Positions 2,100 through 61,631 of a stretch of 64,000 nucleotides of DNA are shown piece by piece; within the stretch, counting starts at the first letter, position 1; every line of letters starts with the position of its first letter. The stretch covers positions 197,343-261,342 of the forward strand of contig MNVE01000016.1 in the NCBI GenBank assembly GCA_001871475.1, in the 5' to 3' direction. The notes under the pieces were generated by a model that did no database searches, had not been told where the DNA came from, and worked only from the letters and a program-made list of their open reading frames with translations. The stretch comes from Candidatus Micrarchaeota archaeon CG1_02_47_40 (GTDB lineage: Archaea; Micrarchaeota; Micrarchaeia; Anstonellales; CG1-02-47-40). The position numbers were made by a program, and so were the translations under genes.

Positions 2100-3053
2100 T
2101 CACTTCAATATTCCCATCTGCGCCAATAAGGCTTCCAACTGTATCCTCTCATTCGCCCCTTCCACCATCCTGAAATTGTACTCTCCTATCTTGTCAATCA
2201 GGTGCACTTTCTTCTCTTCTGAAATCTCAAGCGAGGGGACGGCGCGGTATATCTGCAGTAAAATATCTTCTCCTGACATGCCGTATTTTATGAGCAATTC
2301 ATCCAGATTTTTTCTCGCCTCAAGGAATTTCCCTGAAAGCGCAAGCTGTATCATCGCATCCACTTCAGCCGGCTTTGCGCGCGAGGCGATGCGGTAAATC
2401 AACTCGCTTGTTATTTTCTTTGAAGAGAAGGAAGCCCCCTGCAAGGCATTTATTGCCTTTCTCATATCTCCCTCGCTAATGTATATGAGTGTTTTGAGCG
2501 CTTCCTCATCCACCTGCAAACCTTCCGTTTTTGCAATTCTCTCTATCATCTGTTTTATTTCCCCCTCGGAAAGGGACAGGAAGCGGAAAACGGAGCATCT
2601 GCTCTGCAGGGGCTCTATTATTTTTGAGGAGTAGTTGCAGGAGAGTATGAAGCGGGTTATGGAAAGGTATTTTTCCATCGTGCGCCGCAGGGCGTGCTGT
2701 GCGTCCGAGGTGAGCGCGTCCGCCTCATCTAAAAATATTATCTTAAAGGGGACCGCCTCAAGCGCGACCGTGCGCGCAAAATCCTTTATCTTTCCCCTTA
2801 CAACATCTATTCCTCTTTCATCAGACGCATTCAGCTCTAAAAGAGAAGAGGAAAAATTCTCCCCGTACAAATCATGCGCAAGCGCAAGCGTAGCCGTCGT
2901 TTTCCCTATTCCCGGCGAGCCGGAGAAAAGAAGGTTGGGAAGGTTGCGGTTTTTCACAAAAGCGCGCAAAGAGGAAACTATGTGCGCCTGCCCTATTACG
3001 TCTGGCAGCGTTTTCGGGCGGTATTTTTCAGTCCAGGGGAGAACATCTTCCAT
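2100..3053 (-). CDS. rfcS: replication factor C small subunit
   Basis: Contains PWTEKYRP, the Walker A SGSPGIGKTT, the DEAD-like IIFLDEADALT, and the SRC motif (QSRCSVFRF). The likely start is MEDVLPW, internal to the ORF. Confidence 0.85.
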   Translation of the reverse strand: MEDVLPWTEKYRPKTLPDVIGQAHIVSSLRAFVKNRNLPNLLFSGSPGIGKTTATLALAHDLYGENFSSSLLELNASDERGIDVVRGKIKDFARTVALEAVPFKIIFLDEADALTSDAQHALRRTMEKYLSITRFILSCNYSSKIIEPLQSRCSVFRFLSLSEGEIKQMIERIAKTEGLQVDEEALKTLIYISEGDMRKAINALQGASFSSKKITSELIYRIASRAKPAEVDAMIQLALSGKFLEARKNLDELLIKYGMSGEDILLQIYRAVPSLEISEEKKVHLIDKIGEYNFRMVEGANERIQLEALLAQMGILK

Positions 3054-3128
3054 GAAAATCAGCTTGAGTCTATTTGGGAACAAATTATTATATAGCTTCG
3101 TTGCAATAATATGCTCCAGCAGGTGTAA

Positions 3129-3512
3129 TTGATGGATAAAAAAGAGAGCAGTGGAGTGAATTTTGGGGAAAAGGAAAGGGAAGCCGCATTTGGCGTGCTT
3201 ACCGCCCTAATCGCATTTCTGGCAATTTGGGCATTCAACCTTTTCGGGATGCAGGCATTGGGAGTGTGGGGCGGGGCGCTTGCGATGTGCGCTGCGCTTG
3301 TCGGGATGGCGCTGTTTGCAGGAATGGAAGTGGAGTTTGATTCCGGCAAGGCGGCAATGCTTGTTTTTGTGGCTGCGGTTTTGGCGTATTTTGCGGCAAC
3401 CGTACCTGTGTTTGGCGGGTTTTACTTTTTCAGGCTGGGGTTTCTTTTCCTTCTCTTTTCGCTTACAGCCCCTTTAAGTAGAAGCATAAGGAGAAGGCTG
3501 CTTGGGAAGTAG
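3129..3512 (+). CDS. hypothetical small membrane protein
   Basis: 127 aa with 3-4 hydrophobic helices. No recognisable domain. Confidence 0.35.
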   Translation: MMDKKESSGVNFGEKEREAAFGVLTALIAFLAIWAFNLFGMQALGVWGGALAMCAALVGMALFAGMEVEFDSGKAAMLVFVAAVLAYFAATVPVFGGFYFFRLGFLFLLFSLTAPLSRSIRRRLLGK

Positions 3513-3535
3513 GCGCTTGTACAGAGGTCAAATTT

Positions 3536-6500
3536 ATGCACAACCAAACGAAGCTTGAGGAGAACGTATTGGAGTTTTGGAAGGGGAAGGGCATTTACAA
3601 AAAGGCAAAGGAAAGGAATAAAGAAGGCGAAGCATTCTTCTTCTGCGACGGACCCCCTTATGCCACGGGGCAGATTCACCCAGGCACGGCATGGAATAAG
3701 TGCCTGAAGGATGCGGTTTGTAGATATAAGAGAATGCGCGGGTATAATGTGCGTGCGCAGCCGGGTTATGATACGCACGGGCTTCCGATAGAAGTGAAAG
3801 TTGAGCAGGAGATGAAAATAGGCGAAAAGAAGGAAATAGAGGAAAAAATAGGCATAGAAAAATTCGTGGGGAAATGCAGGGAGTTTGCCACCAGGCACAT
3901 TGAAGTGATAAGCGGGCAGTTTGAGCGCTGCGGGGTGTGGATGGATTTTGAGAACCCGTATATCACTTACAAAAACTCGTACATTGAATCCGCCTGGAAA
4001 ACGATTAAGGCGGCGCATGAAAAGGGATTGCTCTCGCGGGGAGTGTATGTGCTCCCATACTGTACGCGCTGCCAGACAACGCTTGCGAATTATGAACTTG
4101 AGTATGCTGACCAGACGGACCCGAGCATTTACGTGAAATTCAAGGTGAAGGGAAAGGAAAATGAATACCTTGTGATTTGGACTACAACCCCCTGGACGCT
4201 TGTCTCAAATATGGCGGTGATGGCGCATCCAACCCTGGAGTATGTAAAAGCGAAGGTAGGAGATGAAGTTTGGGTGGTTGCAAAGGAAAGGCTGGATGCG
4301 GTAATGGCATTTGCAAATTCCTCGGCAGTGGTGCTCTCGCAAGTATCGGGAAAGAAACTTGAAGGGACGGAATACGAACTTCCGCTTGCGGGAAAAATAA
4401 AAAAGGAGTATAATAGAAAAATGGTGCTCTCGGATGAGTTTGTCAGCGTGGAGGATGGAAGCGGCTTGGTGCACTGCGCTCCCGGGCACGGACCGCAGGA
4501 CTTTATCATAGGAAAACGCTTTGACATTGAAATATTCTCCCCTATTGATGCGGAGGGGAAATTCACGCAGGAAGCAGGCGAGTATGAAGGGATGGACACG
4601 CAAAGCGCGGGAAAGCGCATATTGGAGTATTTGGATGAAGTGAATGCGCTAGTGCATTCTGGAAAAATAGTGCACCGCTACCCGCACTGCTGGCGCTGCA
4701 AGACAAAACTTATTTACCTGACGACAGACCAGTGGTTCATTACAGTCAGCAGACTGAAGGAGAGGATGATGGAGGAGATAGAAAAATGCAATTTCACCCC
4801 TTCTTTTGCAAAAACAAGATTTTCCGATTTTGTGCGCGCCGCGCCTGACTGGTGCATATCGCGCCAAAGGTACTGGGGAATACCGCTTCCCATTTGGATA
4901 TGTGAGAAATGCGCGCATATGAAAGTGGTGGGCTCTGCCTCGGAACTGCCAATCAAGCTTGAGGATTTGCACAGGCCGCAAATTGACACTGTGGAATTTG
5001 AATGCGAAAAATGCAAGGGAAAGATGAAGAGGATTCCGGATATATTGGACGTTTGGTTTGATTCGGGAAATGCGGTGTGGGCGCAGTTTGAAGCAGGGGA
5101 GGCGCTTTTCCCCGCAAACGTGATAATAGAGGGGAAAGACCAGACAAGGGGTTGGTTTTATTCGCTTCTTGGCAGCGGGCTTGTGCTAAAAGACTGCATA
5201 CCTTACTCAAATTTAGTCATGCACGGCTTTTTCGTTGATGAGAAAGGGGAGAAGATGAGTAAATCAGTAGGGAATTTCGTGCCGCTTGAGGAGATAATGA
5301 AGAAAAACGGCTCTGATGCATTTAGGCTTTGGTGCCTCTCTTCCACCATCTGGGATGATTTGAGATTCAACTGGGATGAGATAAGGGAGGCGTCTGTGGC
5401 GCTTGGAATATTATATAATTTGGGGGCGTATTTGCAGAGATTTTACCCTGATAATAAATTGGAGAGGGGCAAAGCGGAGAAAGCAGAGGACGCGTACATA
5501 ATTTCAAGGCTGAATGAAACCGTGAAGGAGTGCACCGGTGCGTTTGAGGAGTACAGGGTGCATGATGCCGCAAAGCTTGCGCGCAGATTTGTCGTGGAGG
5601 ATTTGAGCAGATTTTATCTCAAAATTGCAAAAAAGAGGACGGATGAGGAGTCATTGGCTGCCGTGTATGAGTGTATGTTAACCTCGCTTCGGCTTCTCTG
5701 CCCCATTGCGCCTTGCACATGCGAAGCGGTTTATGGGGAGTTTTTCAAAAAGCATGAAAAAGAGGAGTCCGTGCACTTTTTGGGCTGGCCCGCTTTCAAT
5801 GAGAAGGAAATTGATGCCGTGCTTGAAAAGAAGATGATGGTTGCGCAGGCGGTAATAGCCGCCGCAACGAATGCGCGGCAGAAGGCGAATGTTAAGCTTC
5901 GCTGGCCGCTTGAGAAAATTTCGCTGGCGAGTACGCAAACTGAAGTGAGCAGTGCGGCAGAGGAGCTTTCAGGAATAATATGCGAAATGGCAAATGTGAA
6001 GCAGGTGGAGATTGGGAATGCGCCAAAAAGCAGCTTCTTCCTTGAGCCGAATTTCGCAAAGATAGGGGAGGCGTTTAAGGGGGATTCCAAAGCGGTGATA
6101 GAGGAGCTGGGAAAGATAGATGCAAAAACCGCAGCGGAGGCGCTCTCGCACGATGGGAAGTATGCTGTTTTGGGAAAATACGAGGTAAATAATGAGATGG
6201 TTGGAGTAAAGGAGGAAGCTGGCGGATATTCAATAGCTGAATTTGAAGGGGGAAAGGTTTATTTGAAAACTGAAATGAGCAAAGAGCTTTTGCAGGAGGC
6301 GTATGTGCGCGAGGTGGCAAGAAGGGTTCAGCAGCAGAGGAAAGGGATGAAGCTTGTTGAATCGGATAAGGTGACTTTGGAGATTGCTTGCAGGGGGGAA
6401 ATTAGGGAAATTCTGGAGCGAGGAGAGAAGGAAATTGTGCAGCAGGTGAATGCTTCTTCTGTTGAATTTGTTGAGAAGGCAAAAGGGAAGGAATCGGAAG

Positions 6501-13872: not shown

Positions 13873-15477
13873 TTGCCTATGCCAAAAACGGAAAAAGATA
13901 TTTTTGTCTGCGACACTTCAGTAGTGGTGGATGGAAGGGTAGTTGAGCTTGTTAGGGAAGGGAAAGTGAAGGGAGTAGTAGTAATACCGAATGCTGTTCT
14001 TGCGGAGCTGGAGCATCAGGCAAATGCGGGAAAAGAAACCGGGTTTGCGGGATTGGGGGTTTTGCAGAAATTAAAGGAAATGCAAAAAGAGTTTGAGATA
14101 GAAATACAGATGAGGGGCAGCAGACCGTCTCCCTCGCAGATAGAGTATGCGAAAAGAGGGGAAATTGATGCGGAAATAAGAGGGATGGCTGCACTGCTTG
14201 GGGCAACGCTTATTACAGGGGATACGGTGCAGAAAGAAGTGGCGCTTGTGGAGGGGGTGAAAACACTCTACCTTCACACGCACGAGGTAGCAAAGGATTT
14301 GAGCTTCAAGAAGTATTTCGCTGAAGGGACGATGTCGGTGCATTTGAGGGCAGGCGCGATTCCGATGGCGAAAATAGGAAAGCCGGGAGCTGTGAAGCTT
14401 GTTCCCTGCGGGGAGGGAAAGCTGACTACTGATGATGTAAAGAAGATGGCAACGGAAATAGTGGAGGCAACGGAGAGGAATAAGGAGTATTATTTTGAAA
14501 TAGACAGGAGGGGAGCGGCAGTCATACAGATGGGAAGGTATAGGATAGTGATTACAAAGCCTCCTTTCTCTGATGGGTTTGAAATAACTTTAGTAAGACC
14601 AGTAATGAGCAGGAAAATTGAAGAGTATAAGATGAGTGAGAAACTAAAGGAAAGGCTTTCAAAACAGGCGGAGGGAGTTATAGTGTGCGGCCCGCCCGGA
14701 AGCGGAAAAAGCACCTTTGCGGCTGCGCTTGCGAATTATTACTCCTCCTTGGGAAAGATAGTGAAGACAATGGAATCGCCAAGGGATTTGCAGGTAGGGG
14801 ATGAGATTACGCAGTATGCTCCGCTGGAAGGGAAATTCGAGCTTACAAATGACATAATGCTGCTGGTGCGCCCTGACTATTCCATATATGATGAGATGAG
14901 AAAAACGGATGATTTTGAAGTGTATGCGGATATGAGGATGGCTGGCATTGGATTGGTGGGGGTGTTGCACGCAAACCGCACGATAGATGCTGTGCAGCGC
15001 TTCATAAACCGCATTGACTTGGGAGTGATTCCGCAGGTAGTTGATACGATAATAATGATTAGAGGAGGGGAAGTGGCGCAGGTGTATTCAATGAACTTCA
15101 AGGTGAAGGTGCCAACTGGAATGGTGGAAGAAGATTTGGCGCGCCCTGTAATTGAGGTAAAGGAGTTTGAAACCGGAAAGCTGGAGTATGAAATTTACAA
15201 ATTCGGGGAGGAAACGGTTGTTTTGCCTATTTCGGAGGAGATGGAGAAGGCAAGCGCGCGCGCTTCAGAGCCAATTGATGAGGAGGCAGCTGCGCAAAGG
15301 ATAGAGAAGGCGCTTGGAAGGATTGTAAAGCACGGGTATGAGCTTGAGTTTAGGGGAAGAAAGGCAGTCATACACGTGCACAAGAAGGATATACCAAAAA
15401 TTATCGGGAGAGGCGGAGAGAATATCTCGCGCATTGAAAAGGAAGTAGGAGTAAAAATTGACGTGAAGGAGATATGA
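13873..15477 (+). CDS. PIN domain - P-loop ATPase - KH domain protein (COG1855, PilT-like ATPase)
   Basis: The N-terminal PIN (IFVCDTSVV..D) is followed by a Walker A motif (CGPPGSGKST) and a C-terminal KH domain (IIGRGGENISRIEKEVGVKIDV). Confidence 0.75.
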   Translation: MPMPKTEKDIFVCDTSVVVDGRVVELVREGKVKGVVVIPNAVLAELEHQANAGKETGFAGLGVLQKLKEMQKEFEIEIQMRGSRPSPSQIEYAKRGEIDAEIRGMAALLGATLITGDTVQKEVALVEGVKTLYLHTHEVAKDLSFKKYFAEGTMSVHLRAGAIPMAKIGKPGAVKLVPCGEGKLTTDDVKKMATEIVEATERNKEYYFEIDRRGAAVIQMGRYRIVITKPPFSDGFEITLVRPVMSRKIEEYKMSEKLKERLSKQAEGVIVCGPPGSGKSTFAAALANYYSSLGKIVKTMESPRDLQVGDEITQYAPLEGKFELTNDIMLLVRPDYSIYDEMRKTDDFEVYADMRMAGIGLVGVLHANRTIDAVQRFINRIDLGVIPQVVDTIIMIRGGEVAQVYSMNFKVKVPTGMVEEDLARPVIEVKEFETGKLEYEIYKFGEETVVLPISEEMEKASARASEPIDEEAAAQRIEKALGRIVKHGYELEFRGRKAVIHVHKKDIPKIIGRGGENISRIEKEVGVKIDVKEI

Positions 15478-25463: not shown

Positions 25464-25874
25464 ATGGGCAATAGGAAGGATATGAGAAAGGTAATATTGG
25501 ATACGAACTTCCTTCTGATACCATTCAAATTCAAAATTGACGTGTTTGGGGAAATTGAAAGGCTAGTGGAGGAGCCCCATGAAATACTCGTGCCAAGCGG
25601 AGTGATTGGGGAGCTTTTGCACCTGCAGAGAAACAGGGGGGAGCTTGGAAGGAGCGCCAACTTTGCATTCGTGCTTCTTGAGAAAATGAGGACTGAAGGA
25701 AAAGTAAAGGAGATTGAAAGCAGGGGGGATGTAGACGGGTGGATTGGAAAGTTTGCCTCTGAGAATGAAGGAGTGATTGTGTGCACGAATGATATTTACC
25801 TTAAAAAAACGCTGCAGAAGATGAAATTGAAAACGATTGTGCTTCGGGAGAGGGGGTATCTGGCGCTGGTGTAG
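25464..25874 (+). CDS. PIN-domain nuclease (Fcf1/Utp24-like archaeal PIN)
   Basis: KVILDTNFLLIPFKFKIDVFGEIERL is followed by a Cys-containing C-terminus typical of small archaeal Fcf1-like PIN proteins. Confidence 0.5.
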   Translation: MGNRKDMRKVILDTNFLLIPFKFKIDVFGEIERLVEEPHEILVPSGVIGELLHLQRNRGELGRSANFAFVLLEKMRTEGKVKEIESRGDVDGWIGKFASENEGVIVCTNDIYLKKTLQKMKLKTIVLRERGYLALV

Positions 25875-25926: not shown

Positions 25927-28434
25927 ATGGGAAAAATAAGAGTGGGAATAATAGGGGTGGGAAACTGTTTTGCAGGCTTGTATCAGGGAATTGAGTATTA
26001 CAGGCGGAATCCTGCAAAAAAGGTAATCGGGATAATGCACGAGAAGATGGGCGGCTATTCCTGCGAGGATTTGGAGTTTGTCTGCGCGTTTGATGTCGGG
26101 GAAAACAAGATAGGCAAGCCCCTGCACGAGGCGGTTTACTGCGAGCCGAACATGGTGCGCTGGCTGGAGGGGATGCCGCAGTCGCAATGTGTGGTTAGGG
26201 AAGCACCGGCGCTGGACGGGGTTGGGATTTGGGTGGCAAATAAAGTGAATCCCATAAAGAGCAAAAAAACTACGGAAGGGCTGAAAAGCGAGATACTGCA
26301 GGAAATTCGCAAAACCAAAACGGAAGTGCTTGTGAATTATCTTCCTGTCGGAAGCCAAAAGGCGACAGAGTTCTGGGCGGATATTGCACTGGAAGCAAAA
26401 TGCGCGTTTGTAAATTGCATGCCCGTATTCATCGCAAGCGGCAATGATGGATGGGGGGAAAAATTCGCAAAAGCAGGAGTGCCGATAATCGGGGATGACA
26501 TAAAGGGGTTGGTGGGCGCAACGATAGTGCACAGGACGCTTGCAAGGCTTTGTGATGAGAGGGGGACAAAGATTGAGAAAACTTATCAGATAAATGTTGG
26601 CGGCAACAGCGTAACCGGCGATCAGGAGATTCTGCTTTGGCACAATGGAAAAATGGTGAAAACAAAAATCGGAGATTTTGTTGACGGGCTTGTGGAAGTA
26701 TACGGACAAAAAAGAGGCGATGGAAAGGAAATTGTTGATTTGCGAACTGCTGGCCAGGATGTCAGATGCTTTACGATTGATGAAAACTTTAATGTCATTC
26801 TAAGCGAGGTTGCGGGGTTGATAAGGCACGGATTGTACGAGGAGCTCTACGAGATAGAAACGAATGAGGGAAGAAAGATAAAGATAACAAAGGACCATAA
26901 TGTTTTCGTGCTTAATGGCAAGGGAACGCTTGAAGAGGTTCCCGTGCGCATGCTGAAAGAAAAGGAGAGCATGATTGCGGTTCCGAAAGAGTTGAAACTG
27001 CCAAAAAGAGAGGAGGCGATGCGGGTAAGCCTTCTGCCGCATCTTAAAGAACTGTTTGCGCGCGGGATTGACACTGATGGAAATGTGATGGTGCATAATC
27101 ATCCGGAGATAAAAATACCTGTGGAATTTCCGATTAATGACGAACTTCTCCAGATTGCGGGGCTTTGGATTGCGGATGGCAACTTTGACAGAGAAGGCTC
27201 TGCCAACATAGAAATTGCGTGCGGCAACGATCCGGAATGCCTGGAATTGCTTGAAAACTTTGCATCGGCATATAACATAAACTGCAAGGTGCGCGGACAG
27301 AAGCAGGTTGCTGTCAGGATAATGTCCAAGACCATGACGAAGATATTCCGCCTCGCGCTTGGGCTTGGAGGCAACTGCTATTCAAAAAGGGCGCCGGAAT
27401 GGGCCTTTGACCTTTCTGAAAGACAGATTGCGCTTTTTCTGAGCGGCTATTTGAGCGGGGATGGATGTGTAACTGGGAAGCAAATAAGATGGACCACGGC
27501 ATCTGAAGGGCTTGCAGAGGACATCCGAACGCTGTTTCTTATGATTGGAATAAATTCCTCTGTTTTTAGGGAGGATTACGCAAACAAAAATGCGAAAGGA
27601 AGTTATAAAACGAATCTGGCTTACATCACTCACGGAATAATTTCCTCGAAGGAGGATATGGAATGTTTCGTTGAAAAGGTAGGTTTCATACAAAAATCAA
27701 AGAATATGGCGGCTTTGGATGCGTCGGCAAAATTGACGCGGGGAAGAACGCACCTTGTGCCTAAAACCGGGCTTCTTGGAAAATGGGGGATTAAATCAAA
27801 GGGATGGAACACCTTCGGCTCGCTTAGGGCGCACGTTATCGCTTCCCAACTGGATAAAATCAAGGATGAAAGAGAACGTGGCAGGATGTTTGCCATTTGC
27901 GAAGGAGGCACGCGCTTTCTGAAAATCAGGAGCATAAAAAAACTGGAAAGAAAGGCACAGCATGTCTATGATTTGAATGTGCCGGAATGCCAGCGTTTCA
28001 TATGCTCAAACATACTCGTTCATAATTCTGATTTTTTAAATATGAAGGAGCAGGAGAGGCTGGAAAGCAAGAAAATATCCAAAACGGAGTCGGTGCAAAG
28101 CCAGCTGAAGCAGAGATTGCCTGACCACGACATTTACGTCGGACCGAGCGATTTCATCCCATTTTTGGGGAATACGAAATTGATGTTCATGAGGATAGAG
28201 GGGCTCATGTGGGCGGAGAGGCCGTACAACATGGAAGTGCGCCTTGAGGTAGATGACAAGGCGAATTCCGCAGGTATTGTTATAGATGCAGTAAGGTGCG
28301 CGAAAATTGCGCTTGAGAGAAAAATTGGAGGCCCGATTGAAGCGGCGAGTGCTTATTTGATGAAGCATCCGCCGAAGCAATATTCTGACCCGCAAGCGAG
28401 GGAAATGCTTGAAGAGTTCATTAAGGGGGGTTGA
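25927..28434 (+). CDS. myo-inositol-1-phosphate synthase (archaeal MIPS) interrupted by an intein
   Basis: The N-extein (227 aa, MGKIRVGIIGVGNCFAGLYQGI...KTYQINVGGN) and the C-extein (135 aa, SDFLNMKEQERLESKKISKTE...) together give a ~362-aa MIPS. The ESKKISK segment corresponds to the catalytic lysine pair. A 473-aa insert separates the two exteins. Confidence 0.85.
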   Translation: MGKIRVGIIGVGNCFAGLYQGIEYYRRNPAKKVIGIMHEKMGGYSCEDLEFVCAFDVGENKIGKPLHEAVYCEPNMVRWLEGMPQSQCVVREAPALDGVGIWVANKVNPIKSKKTTEGLKSEILQEIRKTKTEVLVNYLPVGSQKATEFWADIALEAKCAFVNCMPVFIASGNDGWGEKFAKAGVPIIGDDIKGLVGATIVHRTLARLCDERGTKIEKTYQINVGGNSVTGDQEILLWHNGKMVKTKIGDFVDGLVEVYGQKRGDGKEIVDLRTAGQDVRCFTIDENFNVILSEVAGLIRHGLYEELYEIETNEGRKIKITKDHNVFVLNGKGTLEEVPVRMLKEKESMIAVPKELKLPKREEAMRVSLLPHLKELFARGIDTDGNVMVHNHPEIKIPVEFPINDELLQIAGLWIADGNFDREGSANIEIACGNDPECLELLENFASAYNINCKVRGQKQVAVRIMSKTMTKIFRLALGLGGNCYSKRAPEWAFDLSERQIALFLSGYLSGDGCVTGKQIRWTTASEGLAEDIRTLFLMIGINSSVFREDYANKNAKGSYKTNLAYITHGIISSKEDMECFVEKVGFIQKSKNMAALDASAKLTRGRTHLVPKTGLLGKWGIKSKGWNTFGSLRAHVIASQLDKIKDERERGRMFAICEGGTRFLKIRSIKKLERKAQHVYDLNVPECQRFICSNILVHNSDFLNMKEQERLESKKISKTESVQSQLKQRLPDHDIYVGPSDFIPFLGNTKLMFMRIEGLMWAERPYNMEVRLEVDDKANSAGIVIDAVRCAKIALERKIGGPIEAASAYLMKHPPKQYSDPQAREMLEEFIKGG
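26608..28026 (+). mobile_element. intein (class 1, with LAGLIDADG homing-endonuclease domain) within MIPS
   Basis: Block A is SVTGDQEILLWHNG and block B is ITKDHNV (TxxH). LAGLIDADG motifs are LQIAGLWIADGNF and FLSGYLSGDGCV. The C-terminus is ...ICSNILVHN, followed by a Ser as the +1 residue. Confidence 0.8.
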
Positions 28435-28593: not shown

Positions 28594-29232
28594 ATGAATC
28601 AATTAAGAGATGAGGAAATGTTAAAGGAAATTGCACTTGGCAGAAAGATGTCGGAATGCGCAGGGGAGTTTTTTGCGCGCTTCCCGCTTTCTCCGAACCA
28701 ATGGACGCTTCTGTCCGTGCTTCTTGCGCTTGGCGGTTTTTTTGCTCTTTTGGGAAGGAATGTGACTTTTGCCGCTGCTTTTTTTCTCCTCTCTTTTTTC
28801 TGCGATTTGGTGGATGGCGCGGTAGCAAGAAAAAGGGGGGAAAAAACTAAGTTTGGCGCGTATCTTGACGGGATGTGTGATAGATATGTTGAGTTTTTGC
28901 TTCTTTTTGGGATGCTGTTTTACCCTCTTCCTGCATTTCTCCTGCCGACTTATGCCTGGCTTTTTCTCATTCTCTTTTTCGGAACGTGCATGACTGCCTT
29001 TGCAAAGGCGTATGCAAGCCATAGGGGCGCAATGGAGAGGGAAAAAGTAGATGCGATGAGCAGTGTTTTTCAGAGAAGCGAGAGGGGGTTTGTGCTTTTT
29101 TTGGCGCTTGTGATGCTTGCGTTTGATGCGCAGTTTGCAGTTTATCTTCTTGTGCTTGCCGCAGTTCTCTCAGCAATTGCAGTGGCGCAGATAATTTTGA
29201 AAGTGAAACGGGAAAATGCAGAGAAAGATTAG
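28594..29232 (+). CDS. CDP-alcohol phosphatidyltransferase: archaetidylinositol phosphate synthase (AIPS)
   Basis: Contains the motif D-x2-DG-x2-AR-x8-G-x3-D-x3-D (CDLVDGAVARKRGEKTKFGAYLDGMCDRYVE). Polytopic, and immediately downstream of MIPS as in the archaeal MIPS-AIPS pairs. Confidence 0.8.
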   Translation: MNQLRDEEMLKEIALGRKMSECAGEFFARFPLSPNQWTLLSVLLALGGFFALLGRNVTFAAAFFLLSFFCDLVDGAVARKRGEKTKFGAYLDGMCDRYVEFLLLFGMLFYPLPAFLLPTYAWLFLILFFGTCMTAFAKAYASHRGAMEREKVDAMSSVFQRSERGFVLFLALVMLAFDAQFAVYLLVLAAVLSAIAVAQIILKVKRENAEKD

Positions 29233-50785: not shown

Positions 50786-52123
50786 TATAGTGCTAAATAC
50801 TGAAAGGTGAATGGTGTTTTAGTAAATAAATGTGGAAAATGGGCTCATGAGTGCTAGATTGATGTTTCCGTTCAAGCCGCATATGTTTGTTGCGATGTTC
50901 ATGTTCCTGTTTATAGTATATGCAGTAATGCAGAATGAATGGAAGGTGCGCGTCCTGATGCTTGTTCCGGTGACTGTGCTTTTTGTGGTGTTTGTAGCCG
51001 CCTTTGCCTGGGGGGTTAGGGAGGTTTCGGCGGAAGCGGTGAGAGAGTATAAGAAGAAGGAGAATGCGAAGGGAAGAGGGATTGCCACAAAAGCTTTATA
51101 AACAGACCGCGCCATAAACACTGCTACCGAATTTTAACGGTAAATGAGGGGCAGAACCTGGTTTTGCCCCCCTGGATGGAATGAAACCCTTAGGGGGTTC
51201 CATCTGCTGTGGAAATCCGAAGCTTTCGGATTTGACTTGCGCTTCAAGTGGAAAAAAAAGACAAGCAGCAAAATAGAATTGCTCCTTAATGCAATTCCCT
51301 TAAGAAATAAGGAAATGAACTTTTGCAACTCCAGTTGATCCTGCTGGAGGATACTGCTATCAGAGTCCGACTAAGCCATGCAAGTCAGCCCGCAACCATT
51401 GCGGACGGCGTAAGGCTCAGTAACACGTAGTCAATCTGCCCTTTGGACGTGGACATCCTCGAGAAATTGAGGTTAACCCGCGATAGGCCATCTATGCTGG
51501 AATGCTTGATGGTTTAAAGGTGCGCGCGAATTGGAGTGCGCACGCCGGAGGATGAGACTGCGGTTGATTAGGTAGTTGGTGAGGTAACGGCTCACCAAGC
51601 CGATAATCAGTAGGGGCGATGGGAGTCGGAGCCCCGAGAAGAGCACTGAGACAAGGGCTCTAGTCCTACGGGATGCAGCAGGCGCGAAACCTCTGCAATG
51701 CGCTAAAGCGTGACAGGGGGACTCTGAGTGGCGGAGAACTTAGTTCTCCGTCTTTTGACAAGCTTAGATGGCTTGTAGAATAAGTGCTGGGTAAGACCAG
51801 TGCCAGCCGCCGCGGTAATACTGGCAGCACAAGTGGTATCCACGAATATTGGGTCTAAAGAGTTCGTAGCTGGCTTGCTAAGTTCACTGTGAAATCTTGG
51901 AGCCTAACTCCAAGGCGTGCAGTGAATACTGGCAGGCTTGAGAGCGGGGGAGGCGTGGAGTACTTACGGGGTAAGGGTAAAAAGGAGAGTATTGAATGCC
52001 GTAATGCGCAATACTTTTCATTATAATCTCGTAATCCTGTAAGGACTCACAGTGGCGAAGGCGCCACGCCAAAACGCGTCTGACAGTGAGGAACGAAGGC
52101 TAGGAGAACAAATCGGATTAGAT

Positions 52124-52837
52124 TTGGAGCTAGGGAAACGCTAATAAATAACAACGGATTGATAGAATTATGAGATTAGAGCGCCGGGTAAGAGACCTCG
52201 TGAGTAAGCAGAAACGAAAGCCGCTTATGAAGGTTAAACTTCCAGTCGAAACAAGCCCAGAACTCTGTAGAGTGCTTGGCATTCTACATGGCGATGGGAA
52301 TATGTCTGGAAGACGAGTTTTGCTAACCGACGAAAACAGGGTGTTCCACAGAACGATACATAAACTGTTTAAAACGGTTTTTGGAATTAGGATGAATCTG
52401 TTTCACGACATAAGAAGAAATTCGTATTACAGTTATACGAAAAGTGTCTTGGTGTATCGTTTTTTGAACGAAATAATGGAAATGCCCTGCGGTCCAGTAA
52501 GACAAAATCTGAAGATTCCGTCTTATATGGAAAAGCTTGGTTTGAAACACCAAGCAGAGTATGTTGGCGGACTCTTTGACGCTGAAGGATGCGTCAAAAC
52601 AAGACAGGCCGAACTCAACCTCTCATCTACTTCAAAGAATATCTTCAAGTTTATTGGAGGGTTTTTGAAGAAGATTGGGGTGACGTACAGTACGTATGAG
52701 AGGAGAAGGCACAAAAATCCGGAATATGAGATATATGTTTATGGAAAAGACGACTTGAAAAAATTTTCAAGATATGTTTCTTTTTTGCATCCGTTGAAAA
52801 TGAAAAAGATGGCGAAATTTCTTTAGCTCCACTAAAA
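52124..52837 (+). mobile_element. 16S rRNA intron 1 (after GGATTAGAT, E. coli ~790 region) encoding a LAGLIDADG homing endonuclease
   Basis: The exon breaks after GGATTAGAT and resumes at ACCCGAGTAGCCC. The intron ends TGGAGCTA...TAGCTCCA are complementary (BHB-like stem). Confidence 0.7.
52170..52826 (+). CDS. LAGLIDADG homing endonuclease (double-motif) encoded in 16S intron 1
   Basis: Motifs LGILHGDGN and VGGLFDAEGCV. 218 aa. Confidence 0.75.
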   Translation: MRLERRVRDLVSKQKRKPLMKVKLPVETSPELCRVLGILHGDGNMSGRRVLLTDENRVFHRTIHKLFKTVFGIRMNLFHDIRRNSYYSYTKSVLVYRFLNEIMEMPCGPVRQNLKIPSYMEKLGLKHQAEYVGGLFDAEGCVKTRQAELNLSSTSKNIFKFIGGFLKKIGVTYSTYERRRHKNPEYEIYVYGKDDLKKFSRYVSFLHPLKMKKMAKFL

Positions 52838-53010
52838 ACCCGAGTAGCCCTAGCAGTAAATGATGCAGACTGTGGTGTTGCGTCAGCCTAGAGCTGGCGC
52901 AGTGCTGTAGCGTAGACGGTGCGAGTTTGGGTAGATGCGGATAAGATGCAGCAAACGCGCACCGGCGGAAGTCTTAAGTCTGCCACCTGGGGAGTACGAT
53001 CGCAAGATTT

Positions 53011-53052
<42 letters not shown>

Positions 53053-53461
53053 GCTGCGGTTCAATTGGATACAACGCCGGGAATATTACCAGAAGAGACG
53101 GCAGAATGATGGCCAGACTGAAGATCTTGCCTGACAAGCCGAGAGGTACTGCACGGCCATCGTCAGCTCGTGGTGTGAACTGTCCCGTTAAGTCGGGAAA
53201 CGAGCGAGACCCTTATGTACTGTTGCCAGCTTTCCTTTGCAGGAAGGCGCACTCTGTACAGACTGCCCGTGTTAAATGGGAGGAGGGAGAGGGCGACGAT
53301 AGGTCAGTATGGTCTGAATCTTCTTGGGCTACACGTGGCTTACAATGGCTGGGACAATGGGCAGCAACTCCGAAAGGAGAAGCGAATCTCACAAACCCAG
53401 CCCAAGTTCGGATTGAGGGCTGGAACTCGCCCTCATGAAGCTGGAATCCCTAGTAATCGCT

Positions 53462-54233
53462 TGTCAACAATCGAGGCAATCTAGCGAAATGTTTATATTG
53501 TTAGCCGCATTTATTCTTGCGGTTAACAGTATGGAAACTAACTGGAAGAAGAATCCCAAATTGCTACAGAAGATAAGGGCATCGTTAGGATTTTCTCAAA
53601 TAAAATTTGCGAGGTTTCTTGGAACGAAGCAAAGCACTTTAAGCGCTCTTGAGCGGGGCGCGATAAAGACGGTTTCTGAAGAAGCCGCCGAGTGCTTTGC
53701 CAAGAGGCTAAAAGGTGTGAAAATTGCATTTATGACTGAAAATGAAATGCAACGGAAACTTTTGCAAATATCGCAAAGAGGAAAGTTCAAGGGAGAATAT
53801 GCAAGAAGTATGGCCCTTAAAGTACATAGTAAAAATGCAGTTGAGAGTGCAAAATCCCAACCTCTTACAAAACAGGAGGAAAGGATAAATACACTTTTGA
53901 AGGAAAGCGGACTGCGCTATGAGGCTCATCCCGCAATTGACGCGGGGGGCATTTCTTTCGTGGCAGATTTTAAGGTAGAAAAAAATAGATGGATGATTCT
54001 TATTGAGGCTAAAGAATTTAGGACGAAATATAGATTGAAAGCGCCTATATGCGAACTTGCATACAAGGCTACGCGGATAAAACGCTTCAATAAGAATGTG
54101 ATGATGGTTGCAGTCGTAAGCGGAAGACTTATGCAATCTGAGAAAAAGATTCTTTCGGATGAGTTTGACGCTGTTTTTGAAGATGAAGGAAAAATATTAG
54201 AATTCGTAAATAGATTGCCTTGAGTGAACTCGA
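53462..54233 (+). mobile_element. 16S rRNA intron 2 (after CCTAGTAATCGC, E. coli ~1350-1360 region); boundaries +/-15 nt
   Basis: The exon sequence ...GAATCCCTAGTAATCGC is interrupted and resumes at ...GCGGTGAATACGTCCC. It encodes a non-LAGLIDADG ORF. Confidence 0.65.
53489..54223 (+). CDS. intron-encoded HTH (XRE-type) plus PD-(D/E)xK-like nuclease-fold protein (putative novel homing endonuclease)
   Basis: HTH_3-like LQKIRASLGFSQIKFARFLGTKQSTLSALERG. The C-terminal AIDAGGISFVADF...WMILIEAKEF gives a D...ExK arrangement. The ORF-track start at 53435 lies in the rRNA exon, so the start was moved to an internal Met. Confidence 0.5.
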   Translation: MFILLAAFILAVNSMETNWKKNPKLLQKIRASLGFSQIKFARFLGTKQSTLSALERGAIKTVSEEAAECFAKRLKGVKIAFMTENEMQRKLLQISQRGKFKGEYARSMALKVHSKNAVESAKSQPLTKQEERINTLLKESGLRYEAHPAIDAGGISFVADFKVEKNRWMILIEAKEFRTKYRLKAPICELAYKATRIKRFNKNVMMVAVVSGRLMQSEKKILSDEFDAVFEDEGKILEFVNRLP

Positions 54234-54400
54234 GCGGTGAATACGTCCCCGCTCCTTGCACACACCGCCCGTCAAATCACCCAAACGAAGTTTTGGTGAG
54301 GCTTTGCTTCTTGGCAGACCCGAACCAATTCGTCGCGAGGGGGGTTAAGTCGTAACAAGGTATCCGTAGGGGAACCTGCGGATAGATCACCTCCAATATA

Positions 54401-54466
54401 TTTTATCTTCGGATAAAATTGAGGAATAACAGCATGCGAAGTGCGCAAAGGAAGCCGATGTTTTTT
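54401..54466 (+). terminator. hairpin (TTTTATC-TTCG-GATAAAA) and oligo-T tract immediately after the 16S 3' end
   Basis: A TTCG tetraloop hairpin at 54401-54418 is followed by TTTTTT at 54461-54466. Confidence 0.4.
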
Positions 54467-54571
54467 ACTGTTCTGTCTATTCCATTACTTGAAGCGCAAA
54501 TTTTGTATTTTTTTATTTTGATTAGCGCAAGCCTTACGTGTTTAAATTAACCTTTACTGCAAAATCCCTTC

Positions 54572-55045
54572 ATGAAAATCAGCTTAACTCCGGAACTCTC
54601 TTACCTGATAGGGTTATGGCAGGCAAGGGGAAGCCAGGAGGGAGTAGGAATTTGCGGAAACAGGAGAGTGTGCGAAATCTTCCTTGAGGAAGCGCTGAAA
54701 ATCGGGATTGCAAAACCGGATAAAATACAGCTTAAGGAGGATAAGATATATTTTTACCATTCGGCTTACCGCGCGTTTTTTGAGGAAGTGCTGAAGGAGA
54801 GGCTTGAGAGGTTTAAGTACAAAAATGAGTTTGCCGCGCAATATTTGGCAGGTGTTTTTGACGGGTGCGGGGGGATTTTGGAGGATGGGAAGGGTGTGTT
54901 TTTTGCTTGCGGAAATAGGGAGGATGAAATGCTTTTGCTTCGCCTTGGGTTTAAGGCAAAAAAAGTCGGGAAGAGGATTATTGTGATTGGAAAGGAGGAG
55001 TTTTTGGGTTTTGTGAGCAAGTATTTGAAATATTTTGAATGGTGA
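54572..55045 (+). CDS. free-standing LAGLIDADG-like protein in the 16S-tRNA spacer (first motif degenerate)
   Basis: The second motif is YLAGVFDGCGGI. The first motif, YLIGLWQARGS, has lost the acidic residue. 157 aa. Confidence 0.5.
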   Translation: MKISLTPELSYLIGLWQARGSQEGVGICGNRRVCEIFLEEALKIGIAKPDKIQLKEDKIYFYHSAYRAFFEEVLKERLERFKYKNEFAAQYLAGVFDGCGGILEDGKGVFFACGNREDEMLLLRLGFKAKKVGKRIIVIGKEEFLGFVSKYLKYFEW

Positions 55046-55326
55046 GAAAATGCAACACCTGATGCGTTTTGATGCTGGTGCGTTCGCAAGGAGAATTGAA
55101 AAGATAGATATTGAAAAGTTGATGTCTTACGAAAATGCGCTTAGGGTGCGGATGAGATTCAGTCTTTCCAAGCCGCTGTCAGCACAGGAGGGAGAGAATG
55201 GGCGGGTAATCGCACGCTGGCGGCTGGTAGAGGAAGAGATTGGAAAAAGAAACGGAAAATGAGCAATTCGTGACAAACTTTTATAAATAAAAAGAAAGAA
55301 AATGTCTTTACAAACAATAGCGATTT

Positions 55327-55389
55327 GCAATGAGGGCTTTGTAGCCAGCTCATTGCAAAAATTTGAAAATCGCTCTGCGCGATTTTCAA
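55327..55389 (+). other. two adjacent perfect hairpins in the rRNA spacer
   Basis: GCAATGAG-(15 nt)-CTCATTGC spans 55327-55356. TTGAAAATCGC-TCTGC-GCGATTTTCAA spans 55363-55389. They are preceded by TTTTATAAATAA at 55280. Confidence 0.5.
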
Positions 55390-55531
55390 ATGAGGTGTAG
55401 AATTATGAACGGCGGGTGTTTTAGCATTAAGCAGAAAGGGTGGTGCGTTTTCTGAAGCGAAAGTAAGGAAGGAAAGCTCTAATTCTGAAAAGTCTTTAAG
55501 GGGAAGGAAGTGTTCTTTGAATGTTGAAGAA

Positions 55532-55672
55532 ATGCAGCAGTTAGTGAATACTGCATGCTCCAAATATTACTCCCTGCGGGAGCTTGGGGAAATGTTCGGG
55601 GTTTCGCGTTCTTCTGTGTGCAGGGCGCTGGAAAGGGCGGAAAGCCTGGGAATTGCCCCGCTTATTCTCTGA
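55532..55672 (+). CDS. 46-aa HTH peptide resembling a resolvase/sigma-r4 C-terminal HTH (possible gene remnant)
   Basis: MQQLVNTACSKYYSLRELGEMFGVSRSSVCRALERAESLGIAPLIL. In-frame stop 12 codons upstream, so this is not part of a longer ORF. Confidence 0.25.
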   Translation: MQQLVNTACSKYYSLRELGEMFGVSRSSVCRALERAESLGIAPLIL

Positions 55673-55958
55673 AATAAAAAAAATGATGTGATGAAGAATG
55701 GCTGAAATGAAGCCAGTAATACGGAAAAACGATTCAGGAATAAATTTCTTCGGCGCGGGACCCGGGGCGAATAGGTTTAGGAGAATCCGGCTGCCCCCGC
55801 CAGATGGGATAATGAAGCTGCCGCAAACCGCGAGTATTGCCAACGCAAAGGCAAATGAAGTGAAAGGAGCGCCATCTGAATGTTTTTACTTCGCGCCCTT
55901 TTGAGGGCGCGGGCAAAACCCTCCCCCTTTATTAACCTGTTTTGACAAAGAATACCAT

Positions 55959-57047
55959 ATGAATAGATTGCATAGATGTGTTGTTTCCATAGGGGGGGCG
56001 GGAAGGGACGGGATTGCCTGGATAAAGAAAATGCCAGCCGTGATTTTTCCTCCATTTCATCCGGCAAACTGGAAAAAACCAAGAAAGGGACGCTTGCCAG
56101 TTATTTCTGCGCCTCTTGCAGAAGATCTCTCTCGCCAAAAACCTGCGCATGTTCCTTTTTTCAGGCATGGCGGCGCCCCTAGAATACTGTCTGAACAGCA
56201 GTTCCTGAAGAACGAACCTTCTCCTTTTGCGGAAGGGCTGGAAAAGCAGGCGGAAGCGTATAATGGACTGGTCTTTGGCATTGCAAGCAGGCTTTGCGAA
56301 GAAAGGGCGGATGAAAAAAAGGAAATTGACGCTCTCCGCATGATTGTAAAGAAGATACGGAGAACCGTCAAGGTTGCGCATGACGCCGGGGAGCCTTTCC
56401 TCTCGGAATCGCTTGAAAGGGGAAATTGGAGCGCGGATTCGCTTGCGTTTCTTCTTTTTGACGTCTGCAGGAGCCTTAGGCTGGAGCCTAGAATGATTGA
56501 CACCCCGAACGGGCTGTTTGTGGCAAACGGAAAATTCGTGATTGACTCGGTTATGCTGCAGGTTATTTCGCGCAAAAATTTTGATGCGGAAAAACGACAC
56601 GTCTGCCGTGAGACTTCGGATGCGGTTGAAATGCAGTATCTTCATCATATGCACATTGCCTACGCAGGGGTTAAGGGCGATTTCTGGGGGGCGGTCAGGG
56701 AAGCCGATAGGGCGGCGAAGCTGAACCCGAACTGCGCCTGCGCGCAACTTGCGAAAGCCATGTTTTACGGGGAGGCGGGGGATTTTCGGAATGCCCTTGC
56801 ATGCTACAACAAGGCGCTGGAAATTGCGCCAGAAGAGGAAACCCTTATTCACGCGCGGGCTGTTTTTTTTGAGAAATTCGGCTGTTTTGAGGATGCGGCA
56901 GGCGGATATATGCGGCTGGCGCGGGCGCATCCGGAAAACTTTTCGTATAAGTTTATGCTTTATTATGCGCTGAAGCAGCTTGAACGCCTGCGCCGGGGGA
57001 GCTCGGATGCGGGCGGGCAAGAGGGGCGGAAGGCGCAGACCGCTTAG
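55959..57047 (+). CDS. hypothetical protein with C-terminal TPR-like repeats in a compositionally atypical (G+C-richer) segment
   Basis: Sequences AKLNPNCACAQLAKAMFYGEAGDFRNALACYNKALEIAPEE and FEKFGCFEDAAGGYMRLARAHPEN are TPR-like. Both strands carry a 362-aa ORF here; the plus strand is the protein-like one. Confidence 0.35.
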   Translation: MNRLHRCVVSIGGAGRDGIAWIKKMPAVIFPPFHPANWKKPRKGRLPVISAPLAEDLSRQKPAHVPFFRHGGAPRILSEQQFLKNEPSPFAEGLEKQAEAYNGLVFGIASRLCEERADEKKEIDALRMIVKKIRRTVKVAHDAGEPFLSESLERGNWSADSLAFLLFDVCRSLRLEPRMIDTPNGLFVANGKFVIDSVMLQVISRKNFDAEKRHVCRETSDAVEMQYLHHMHIAYAGVKGDFWGAVREADRAAKLNPNCACAQLAKAMFYGEAGDFRNALACYNKALEIAPEEETLIHARAVFFEKFGCFEDAAGGYMRLARAHPENFSYKFMLYYALKQLERLRRGSSDAGGQEGRKAQTA

Positions 57048-57086
57048 CTTTCTTTTTTAAACTCTTTTCAACAAAATATAATTAGT

Positions 57087-57223
57087 GGGCTCGTGGCGCA
57101 GCGGTAGCGCGCGTGCTTTGCAGTTGAGCAAGAGACGTCTTCTCAAACAAAAAAGCACGAGGCCGTGGGTTCGCGCCCCTAAAATTTTATTTTGGAGGCG
57201 GCTCAAAAATCCCACCGAGTCCA
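57087..57223 (+). tRNA. tRNA-Ala(UGC) with a canonical 37/38 intron (~30 nt) and a probable second intron in the T-loop (~34 nt)
   Basis: Acceptor GGGCTCG/CGAGTCC (G3:U70 Ala identity pair). D arm GCGC-AGCGGTA-GCGC. Anticodon stem CGTGC/GCACG with loop TTTGCA-[intron]-A. T stem GTGGG/CCCAC with loop TTC-[insert]-AAAT. Discriminator A. No encoded CCA. Confidence 0.55.
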
Positions 57224-57227
57224 CTTT

Positions 57228-57698
57228 TCATATCTTTATCTGATTTCCGCCATTGTCTATCGTGTAGTCTGAGTCGAACTTCTCAATCGCAAAGAGGATT
57301 TTTGCAAGCGTTTCCTTCCTGTTTCCGAATTTTGCCTCCGCGAGCGCATTCCTTATTGCTTCGCACAGCTTGACTATTCTGCCGGCTTCGTTCGCAAAAG
57401 ACGTGTCGGTTTGTGCCAGCTCTTTTTTCAGATTTTCAATTTTCGCCCGCAGTTTTCTTGTTTCTGCAGTTTCTCCGCTTTTTTGAGTGAGTTGCCGTAT
57501 GCGCCCCGGCACGCGGCATTTTCCCCCAACGCCCGTTTGGTGCGGCTCCGGTGCGGGCTTTATGCCGAAACGAATTCTTCTGCTTGTGGTTTCCCCGCCA
57601 GCTGTTTTTTGCGTGGAATGGCTCCATTTGTTATGCGCAGTTAATTTAGTCATGAATATCACCTGTGTTAGATTATGCACAAGCGTATTTATAAGCAT
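57228..57698 (-). CDS. hypothetical coiled-coil protein encoded antisense in the tRNA-23S spacer
   Basis: The C-terminal half (RKLRAKIENLKKELAQTDTSFANEAGRIVKLCEAIRNALAEAKFGN) is protein-like. A TATA-like TTTATAAAC lies ~38 nt upstream of the internal Met at 57698. Confidence 0.25.
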   Translation of the reverse strand: MLINTLVHNLTQVIFMTKLTAHNKWSHSTQKTAGGETTSRRIRFGIKPAPEPHQTGVGGKCRVPGRIRQLTQKSGETAETRKLRAKIENLKKELAQTDTSFANEAGRIVKLCEAIRNALAEAKFGNRKETLAKILFAIEKFDSDYTIDNGGNQIKI

Positions 57699-59912: not shown

Positions 59913-60504
59913 TCGTCAGTTCCAATTTTAAACATCAAATGAGCTTGGTTCCATATGCAGAAGTTTGAGGAGTATTTTATAGGCGCACTTCAAGATGCGT
60001 ACGTCGATGAAAAGCGCAATGAGATTCAGCTGTACCAAAAGAATAAGGAATGGCTCGATTTTATTAATGCCAATCTTAAGAAAGATTACGGCATTACTGG
60101 AAAGATTTTCAAAAGAGACGTTTACTTGCTTAGAAAAAGAAGCAAAGCGTTTGTTTTGAAAATTAAAGAGGCAAAAACTAGAATGAATTCTTTTGGCGCG
60201 GATTTCGTCGCAGGGCTTTTTGATTCGGAAGGTTCTGTTTACCTTTCAACAAAATCAAAAATACCCATCATTGATGTAACGCAATCCGAAAAAGGATTGG
60301 AATATCTTAAGTGTGCGCAAAAAATTCTTATGGAGAATGGGATTGATTCGAAACTGAATGGCCCATATAAACATAAGCATGGAAAACTCCTGCAATATCA
60401 TCTGCGCATATATGGAAATAAAAAATGTGGGATATTTTTTAGGTTAATTCCCATTTATTATAAGAATAAGTTTGAGAAATGCTCATTTTGAACTGACGAC
60501 CCCA
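59913..60504 (+). mobile_element. 23S intron 1 (between GGGGGTAA and ACTCTGACCCTCTTA; E. coli ~1915-1925 region)
   Basis: Flanked by complementary TCGTCAGTT...AACTGACGA. Contains a single-motif LAGLIDADG ORF. Confidence 0.7.
59955..60491 (+). CDS. LAGLIDADG homing endonuclease (single-motif, homodimer type)
   Basis: Motif FVAGLFDSEGSV. 178 aa. Confidence 0.7.
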   Translation: MQKFEEYFIGALQDAYVDEKRNEIQLYQKNKEWLDFINANLKKDYGITGKIFKRDVYLLRKRSKAFVLKIKEAKTRMNSFGADFVAGLFDSEGSVYLSTKSKIPIIDVTQSEKGLEYLKCAQKILMENGIDSKLNGPYKHKHGKLLQYHLRIYGNKKCGIFFRLIPIYYKNKFEKCSF

Positions 60505-60703
60505 CACTCTGACCCTCTTATTTGGCTCTTGCAAGAAATTGCCGGAGCTGATGTGAGATAGGTAGCGTAATACCTCGCCGCTTAATTGGTGGCTTGCATG
60601 AATGGCATAACGCGTCTCCCACTGTCCCTACGAGGGACCTGGTGAACCTACTACTCTGTGAGTATGCAGAGGACTTCTAGGGGGAAACGAAGACCCCGTG
60701 GAG

Positions 60704-61467: not shown

Positions 61468-61631
61468 CTTTACTATAGCCTGCTGTTGAGATACGGTGAT
61501 GGTCGCGGAGCGTAAATGGGAGCCGTTACGCTGCATCTTTCGGGGTGCAGATAGGCGACATTGTAACACCATTCGATCGTTATTGTATTTCTTACCGGAA
61601 GGGACCGCGGCAGGTGGATAGTTTGGCTGGG

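Follow-up and report, generated by a model that had tools for sequence, protein, structure and literature searches.

What fills the surplus length of a gene for MIPS (the synthase of myo-inositol-1-phosphate) that runs to 835 codons in an uncultured archaeon, and how might it have come to be there? The gene lies at 25927–28434 on the + strand of a 64,000-nucleotide stretch of contig MNVE01000016.1 (assembly GCA_001871475.1, positions 197,343 to 261,342; hereafter the window) assigned to Candidatus Micrarchaeota archaeon CG1_02_47_40, and its open reading frame (ORF) encodes an 835-aa protein with no stop codon or frameshift inside. The surplus is one in-frame insert of 473 aa (by translation) at 26608–28026. 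Very probably this insert is a genuine class 1 intein that houses a LAGLIDADG homing endonuclease, and the single MIPS gene that it interrupts in frame is that of a groundwater archaeon resembling Micrarchaeia (DPANN). The window carries archaeal small- and large-subunit (SSU and LSU) rRNA genes, and the nearest relatives of its MIPS belong to Micrarchaeia of the order Anstonellales, including Bilamarchaeaceae. An initial annotation, made from the letters alone, had placed an intein of 473 aa at 26608–28026, and the ORF and its translated junctions bear these coordinates out to the base.

The boundaries of the insert read KTYQINVGGN↓SVTGDQEILL on the N-terminal side and FICSNILVHN↓SDFLNMKEQE on the C-terminal side. 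The N-extein (25927–26607, MIPS residues 1–227), which gives PF01658 and TIGR03450 matches, ends in YQINVGGN, the first half of the conserved Block D of the enzyme, and the C-extein (28027–28434) supplies residues 701–835 and the stop codon. Between them, and like them on the + strand, every intein block named in the initial annotation could be located. Block A, SVTGDQEIL (26608–26634), opens with Ser1 (26608–26610) as the first nucleophile; block B holds the TxxH signature as T94-K-D-H97 (26887–26898); the two LAGLIDADG motifs, LLQIAGLWIADGNF (27145–27186, intein residues 180–193) and IALFLSGYLSGDGCV (27427–27471, intein residues 274–288), contain Asp190 and Asp285 respectively as presumed metal ligands; and blocks F and G (VYDLNV...FICSNILVHN, 27964–28026, with block G at 27997–28026) finish in His472-Asn473 at the C-terminal splice junction, directly before Ser701 (28027–28029) as the +1 nucleophile. 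Profile searches agree with this anatomy at scores that chance would not give: the insert matches Intein_splicing (Pfam, E = 5.5e-19), LAGLIDADG_3 over intein residues 273–359 (E = 2.2e-17) and the NCBIfam model intein_Nterm (TIGR01445) with 36.2 bits vs a cut-off of 24.5. A removable in-frame insert with Ser1, TxxH, His-Asn followed by Ser+1 and a Hint fold is what marks a class 1 intein, and two motifs with an acidic residue each, the LAGLIDADG fold and a homing signature mark the endonuclease.

The identity of the host protein follows from a full-length PF01658 match together with Block D (N..GN.D) and Block C (SKxxxK). In the precursor the insert splits the Pfam domain Inos-1-P_synth (PF01658) in two, and the joined flanks give a single unbroken match (E = 4.3e-32, 110.9 bits vs a cut-off of 27). 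Aligned to the Mycobacterium tuberculosis inositol-3-phosphate synthase (1GR0), the flanks form two abutting pieces, query 3–227 to chain 15–233 and query 700–834 to chain 233–367, with an overall E of 2.4e-98. The 120 closest intein-free MIPS proteins are likewise collinear with the spliced extein, so the expectation that the flanks would rebuild a contiguous enzyme holds. M. tuberculosis Ino1 and intein-free Micrarchaeota MIPS (P0272 and others) match the spliced extein end to end and keep both Block D (N-x-G-G-N-x-D) and Block C (S-K-x-x-x-K), differing in the absence of the 473-aa insert; the residue equivalent to +1 is Met in the mycobacterial enzyme. As the window derives from a metagenome assembly, it might be supposed that the insert is no intein at all—that it is an assembly chimera, a non-splicing Hint domain of the bacterial intein-like (BIL) type, or a class 3 intein. 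This is already contradicted by the data and has next to no likelihood: the identical protein is on record from both NCBI and ENA (the latter on a 240-kb contig of groundwater metagenome ERZ909571 / SRR1534154), homologous insertions stand on dozens of independently assembled contigs, the flanks rejoin precisely, and Ser1, TxxH, His-Asn and Ser+1 define class 1.

A search with the precursor as query gave 75 clusters (at 90% identity) of 600–905-aa proteins with the same three Pfam domains, to which a cluster look-up added one more. The insert occupies the identical MIPS site in all 76 of these proteins (GGN↓S...HN↓T/S-DF), three of which are fragments without one junction. Ser1 stands at every N-junction found (74 of 76, two being fragments), and His-Asn at every C-junction found (75 of 76, one being a fragment). 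Class 3 inteins have no nucleophile at position 1, and an internal block F Cys (WCT) starts their reaction; with Ser1 throughout and a block F of VYDL, that class was ruled out. Full-length members measure 465–488 aa, the 473 aa of the window copy being the modal length, and the conserved positions of the family alignment fall mainly into blocks A, B, F and G and the two LAGLIDADG motifs. Invariant in alignment A1 are the S, V and G of block A; T101 and H104, the Thr and His of block B; A196, D197 and G198 of motif 1 and G291, D292 and G293 of motif 2, columns D197 and D292 corresponding to Asp190 and Asp285 of the window; V, Y and D of block F; and C, S, N, I, L, H and N of block G. The +1 residue is Thr (ACN) in all other members with a C-junction and Ser (TCT) in the window alone. 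Since Ser also occupies the equivalent position in 8 of the 120 nearest intein-free orthologues (Thr in 111, Ala in 1), the Ser+1 of the window looks like ordinary host variation.

When one genome was scanned for each GTDB species, at least 24 species loci were found to carry the MIPS intein. By the labels of their metagenome-assembled genome (MAG) records, the hosts comprise Micrarchaeota, Aenigmatarchaeota, Iainarchaeum (Iainarchaeota), Hadarchaeum (Hadarchaeota), Hodarchaeaceae (Asgard) and Altiarchaeales, and two of the 24 records are labelled bacteria.

The position of the insert bears directly on what splicing would mean for the cell. According to a comparative and mutational study of the enzyme (PMC5614600), MIPS Block D has the form N-x-x-G-N-x-D (N229, G232, N233 and D235 in M. 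tuberculosis; N350, G353, N354 and D356 in yeast) and Block C the form S-K-x-x-x-K (with the yeast lysines K369 and K373); the structure of the yeast enzyme has D356 touching NADH, and K369 and K373 touching the substrate. As the initial annotation had it, the intein interrupts NVGGN↓SDFLNM, and this segment proves to lie within catalytic Block D: the insert is bounded on one side by the Block D Asn and on the other by the residue preceding the Block D Asp, so that the equivalent of yeast D356 (Asp702) comes two residues past the insertion point. The catalytic K-x3-K, thought at first to begin some 12 residues from the junction, is made up of K715 and K719 (28069–28083), which are actually at +15 and +19. 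The active site of the unspliced precursor would thus be disrupted, and because the insertion splits Block D ahead of both the NADH-contacting Asp and the catalytic lysines, splicing should be obligatory.

The course of splicing can be proposed along conventional lines. Once the 835-aa precursor is translated, Ser1 would undergo an N–O acyl shift at the Asn227–Ser228 bond, the ester would be handed to the hydroxyl of Ser+1 (Ser701), and Asn473, helped by His472, would cyclise and free the intein; a final O–N shift would leave a normal Asn–Ser bond in a 362-aa MIPS with Block D intact (N-x-G-G-N-S-D). Splicing would then be required for inositol-phosphate synthesis, the product of which presumably feeds an inositol-phospholipid synthase encoded 160 nt downstream. 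The freed intein, for its part, is predicted to act as a site-specific DNA endonuclease that cuts intein-free MIPS genes at the highly conserved DNA encoding YQ(I/L)NxGGN↓(T/S)DFLNM, whereupon repair of the cut would copy the intein in. Homing of this kind would make for an element that is sporadic, always at one site, and with a history unlike that of its host gene.

A different role may be imagined for an insert so placed, namely that of a domesticated switch, no longer mobile, in which splicing responds to temperature, redox state, salt or a metabolite and so controls the supply of active MIPS and hence of inositol lipids. With the intein in the active site the unspliced precursor should be inactive, two Cys residues of the intein (C54 and C466) do not vary within the family, many lineages have kept the allele, and roles of this sort have been proposed for at least some other inteins (PMC4760082; PMC11409957). 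On the other side, with both nucleophiles being Ser or Thr there is no Cys1/Cys+1 pair to serve as a redox switch, and the distribution and history of the element, given below, fit a regulatory role poorly.

Several results support the view that the MIPS intein is a mobile homing element. The 120 closest intein-free MIPS proteins, of about 360 aa, are 68–78% identical to the spliced extein and all have an uninterrupted GGN(T/S/A)DF. Within Bilamarchaeaceae an occupied allele (P0009) exists beside empty ones (P0276, P0383). The MIPS locus of an Anstonellales MAG (L026) lacks the intein and is for the most part syntenic with the window: both share the order H+-PPase, PIN, MIPS, CDP-alcohol phosphatidyltransferase (CDP-OH transferase), DUF359, helix-turn-helix (HTH) regulator and an ORF of ~760 aa, and each has a few extra genes within it. 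The empty-site DNA of this locus reads TATCAGATAAACGTAGGGGGAAAT↓ACTGATTTCATAAACATGAAGGAA across the junction; junction DNA was recovered for both occupied and empty states, and it is highly conserved at the protein level. Compared in pairs, family members have a mean identity of 0.57 in the LAGLIDADG domain, of 0.49 in the N-terminal part of the Hint domain and of 0.41 in the segment that follows the nuclease; the nuclease, at least as well conserved as the Hint part, is therefore taken to be under constraint.

The family also includes derivatives at the same MIPS site in which the LAGLIDADG core is deleted (L021, 2347–4323, 885 nt or ~295 aa; L023, 932–2800, 765 nt or ~255 aa) or the intein is shortened to 436 aa (L019, 2326–4752). 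L021 and L023 keep the splicing domain. Because all three retain the conserved segment after the nuclease (KVGFIQ...), that segment may belong to the splicing domain or form a DNA-binding appendage. In a further locus (L011, ~2400–3850) the intein frame shifts within a poly-A/Lys run (IYGKKK...), which could be a real inactivation or a homopolymer assembly error; given the latter prospect it was not counted as decay. Such degenerate forms, the deleted, the shortened and the frameshifted, raise the thought that the window copy too is a vertically inherited relic with a dead endonuclease, whether in a gene that still splices or in a pseudogene. This is very improbable for the window copy, which is of full, modal length, has no stop codon or frameshift, and keeps both catalytic Asp residues along with every strongly conserved position of the LAGLIDADG domain.

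The histories of intein and host gene also part ways. In a distance-based four-cluster bootstrap of four host groups (A to D), the extein topology was AC|BD in all 200 replicates, and that of the inteins was AB|CD, again in 200/200. Individual proteins show the same discord: P0043 joins a Micrarchaeota extein (67% identical to group C) to an intein of the AB type (65% to A, 44% to C), and P0020 presents the converse. These conflicting histories, a sporadic distribution in which the closest relatives and a largely syntenic locus have empty sites, and a strongly conserved endonuclease domain for which a purely regulatory splicing element would have no need, together make it unlikely that the MIPS intein has settled into the part of an immobile switch, and they are what one would look for in a homing element.

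Several points weigh against this reading and should be set beside it. Splicing and endonuclease activity are predicted from conserved residues. The incongruence comes from the distance-based procedure named above, which is not a full likelihood analysis. In the structural model described below, the last ~21 residues, spanning block G and the C-terminal junction, have a predicted local distance difference test score (pLDDT) under 50. The residue before block G, often His in inteins, is Arg in the window and is conserved as such family-wide. GC content at third codon positions is 0.50 in the intein vs 0.57–0.59 in the exteins, a gap too modest to be taken as evidence, and an argument for foreign origin from composition was dropped accordingly. 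Finally, the spliced extein scores 397 bits against the TIGR03450 equivalog, a model of the mycothiol-type INO1, below its cut-off of 638; judged by these scores it is a member of the MIPS family but not that equivalog, so that it may make either inositol-3-phosphate or some related cyclitol phosphate.

If the MIPS intein is mobile, how far has it moved? Its cross-domain distribution is its most interesting feature. Carriers of groups A and B lie on bacterial contigs with two different gene orders. In group A (P0024, P0040), known from several independent assemblies, MIPS follows UvrA, GroES/GroEL, LemA and an M48 peptidase, with UvrC, DnaG primase and sigma-70 additionally on the P0024 contigs. 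In group B (P0055, L013, L023), where the order is EF-P/PriA-PadR-MIPS, the neighbour is a PadR regulator, with elongation factor P, including its bacterial C-terminal domain, near MIPS in L013 and L030/L031, and with PriA and a formyltransferase-C domain in L030/L031. The bacterial-contig loci with these gene orders are L033/L034, L036/L037, L030/L031, L013 and L023, one record being labelled Patescibacteria. The same intein lineage occurs beside archaeal neighbours in P0043 (a CTP-dependent riboflavin kinase) and P0056 (CDC48, RadA and class I LysRS), and therefore one lineage spans both domains.

From this it may be proposed that the AB-type intein is a mobile element that has crossed the domain boundary, being found at the same MIPS codon in two unrelated bacterial genome sets (one labelled Patescibacteria), in Micrarchaeota and in other archaea, with a history independent of the host gene; we would put the chances of this at about even. 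Two routes may be envisaged: the intein alone may have crossed between domains, or the whole MIPS gene may have crossed, inteins being exchanged among bacteria afterwards. Exteins of the bacterial group look like archaeal ones, but the intein-free comparison set is biased towards the relatives of the window. Were the cross-domain reading true, it would imply that ultra-small archaea exchange DNA with bacteria, and that homing takes place between them, in the groundwater habitats that they have in common.

At one of the bacterial-contig loci (L036, 1263–2474 and 10743–11709), small GIY-YIG and HNH nuclease ORFs directly follow the intein-bearing MIPS, and a 403-aa ORF upstream has faint LAGLIDADG and HTH matches. 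This locus is a possible hot spot of homing-type elements.

In its build the MIPS intein is a conventional one, in architecture and mechanism alike. An AlphaFold2 model (pLDDT 84, predicted template-modelling score 0.87) has as its best Foldseek matches PI-PkoII (2cw7), the TliVMA intein (7qss) and PI-PfuI (1dq3), with template-modelling scores of 0.6–0.75 and E = 1.5e-25 to 8e-22; PI-SceI, mini-inteins and I-DmoI come later, with I-DmoI and I-Tsp061I matching over the central domain. A phmmer comparison with 2CW7 also finds the middle of the precursor (E = 5.4e-18). PI-PkoII (the Thermococcus Pol intein), the VMA inteins TliVMA and PhoVMA (7QSS, 7QST) and PI-PfuI (from ribonucleotide reductase, 1DQ3) share with the MIPS intein a Hint domain split by a double-motif LAGLIDADG endonuclease, with an extra region after the nuclease. 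The differences lie in an identity of only 16–19%, in both nucleophiles of the MIPS intein being Ser, and in the host, which is a metabolic NAD-dependent cyclase as against a polymerase, an ATPase and a ribonucleotide reductase.

An exhaustive search of 1.84 billion representatives, which superseded an intein-only word-index search that gave only 21 matches at the limit of its sensitivity, returned 3,400 matches at E < 1e-3. The MIPS-intein representative stood at 582 bits vs at most 271 bits for all others, and by this gap the MIPS intein forms a separate clade. The nearest non-MIPS relatives, only 30–36% identical, are inteins of archaeal type II/IV secretion or pilus (PilB/FlaI-like) ATPases: all six examined were in PF00437 proteins, at 31–36% identity and 178–271 bits, some matching over the full intein length, and they differ from the MIPS intein in host and insertion site. 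The intein-containing NCBIfam models for Tes (NF045703) and RtcB (NF038162) match the endonuclease region weakly (E = 1.7e-12 and 2.8e-07). A scan of IMG/VR for a copy in a viral vector yielded unrelated inteins only, at identities of 34% or less.

The window itself has a PIN + T2SSE-like ATPase + KH protein without an intein (13873–15477), and L021 has, just downstream of MIPS, an ORF of similar appearance with a PIN-like start. The T2SSE-family ATPases that harbour the nearest non-MIPS inteins may be of a subfamily other than that of the 13873–15477 ORF.

How novel is the element? The initial annotation had called MIPS an unusual intein host and suggested a new insertion site. No paper coupling an intein to MIPS came up in a full-text literature search on intein terms, the word inositol is absent from the main text of the survey by Novikova et al. 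2016 (PMC4760082), and no NCBIfam intein-containing model of the kind that exists for Tes, RtcB, GyrA and RecA matched for MIPS. The first suggestion accords with the bias reported in that survey, by which 66.9% of archaeal intein hosts serve replication, recombination and repair and 8.3% nucleotide metabolism (Novikova et al., PMC4760082). The second stands as regards the literature but not the databases, where the allele is already present in at least 76 clusters; the insertion site and the intein clade are thus apparently undescribed, though not unseen.

Metabolic enzymes are in themselves no unprecedented hosts, since the GlmS, UDP-glucose dehydrogenase and PEP synthase of Methanocaldococcus jannaschii carry inteins. 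The tetraether lipid synthase Tes (NF045703) offers the parallel of an intein in a lipid-pathway enzyme, in a host family other than MIPS. Automatic annotation at JGI names some members [quoted passage not shown]. At NCBI most of these proteins, P0009, P0029, P0031, P0039, P0041, P0058, P0062, P0065 and P0072 among them, go by "LAGLIDADG family homing endonuclease" or "hypothetical protein", a naming attributable to the lack of a matched exception model for MIPS. Such names hide the enzyme, and metabolic reconstructions that draw on annotation may wrongly score inositol synthesis as absent.

The MIPS intein adds an enzyme of a lipid-headgroup and osmolyte pathway to the known intein hosts. As a counter-example to the rule of replication, repair and nucleotide metabolism in archaea, it bears on whether that bias reflects function or opportunity. 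The family is populous, spans Archaea and Bacteria, and offers full-length, endonuclease-deleted and empty-site states, which makes it possible to study homing as a cycle, and the spread between lineages, in uncultured organisms of the DPANN and CPR (candidate phyla radiation) types. A family with oxygen nucleophiles throughout (Ser1 with Ser+1 or Thr+1) and many natural variants could also serve protein engineering.

The surroundings of the gene are consistent with a role in inositol lipids. The gene that begins 160 nt after the MIPS ORF (28594–29232, + strand) encodes a CDP-alcohol phosphatidyltransferase (PF01066, E = 2e-16) whose best match is archaetidylinositol-phosphate synthase (NF040950, E = 2.7e-29, below the cut-off of that model). 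It would use the MIPS product, and the pair, seen again in L026 with its empty site as well as at other loci, has the look of an inositol-phospholipid module. On the bacterial contig L013 a CDP-OH transferase is also seen near MIPS. Upstream of MIPS lies a PIN_9 gene (25464–25874, + strand; PF18477, E = 1.2e-19), which belongs to the gene order of the intein-free orthologous locus and has the same position in L026 and L027.

A search for further inteins in five of the window's other large ORFs (those for an IleRS-like protein, FGAM synthase, H+-PPase and the PIN/ATPase/KH protein, and a 768-aa ORF) found none.

Elements with LAGLIDADG endonucleases are not confined to MIPS in this stretch. The SSU and LSU rRNA genes (51328–53558 and 57974–64000) are ~750 nt and ~3 kb longer than their Rfam models and therefore hold several insertions. 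The LAGLIDADG-rich rRNA introns that the initial annotation had mentioned are borne out by ORFs within them that match LAGLIDADG Pfam families, at 52170–52826, 59955–60491, 61643–62275 (- strand) and 63055–63585; a further ORF in the LSU region (60658–61437) shows LAGLIDADG-like motifs by eye with no Pfam match. Kinship between these rRNA-intron endonucleases and that of the intein was considered and rejected, the best BLASTP match being of 25% identity at E = 0.002. Between the SSU and LSU genes lie ~4.4 kb (53559–57973) with ORFs of protein size at 53435–54223, 54572–55045 (LAGLIDADG-like motifs, no Pfam match) and 55959–57047, a spacing by which the two rRNA genes may not make up a compact operon.

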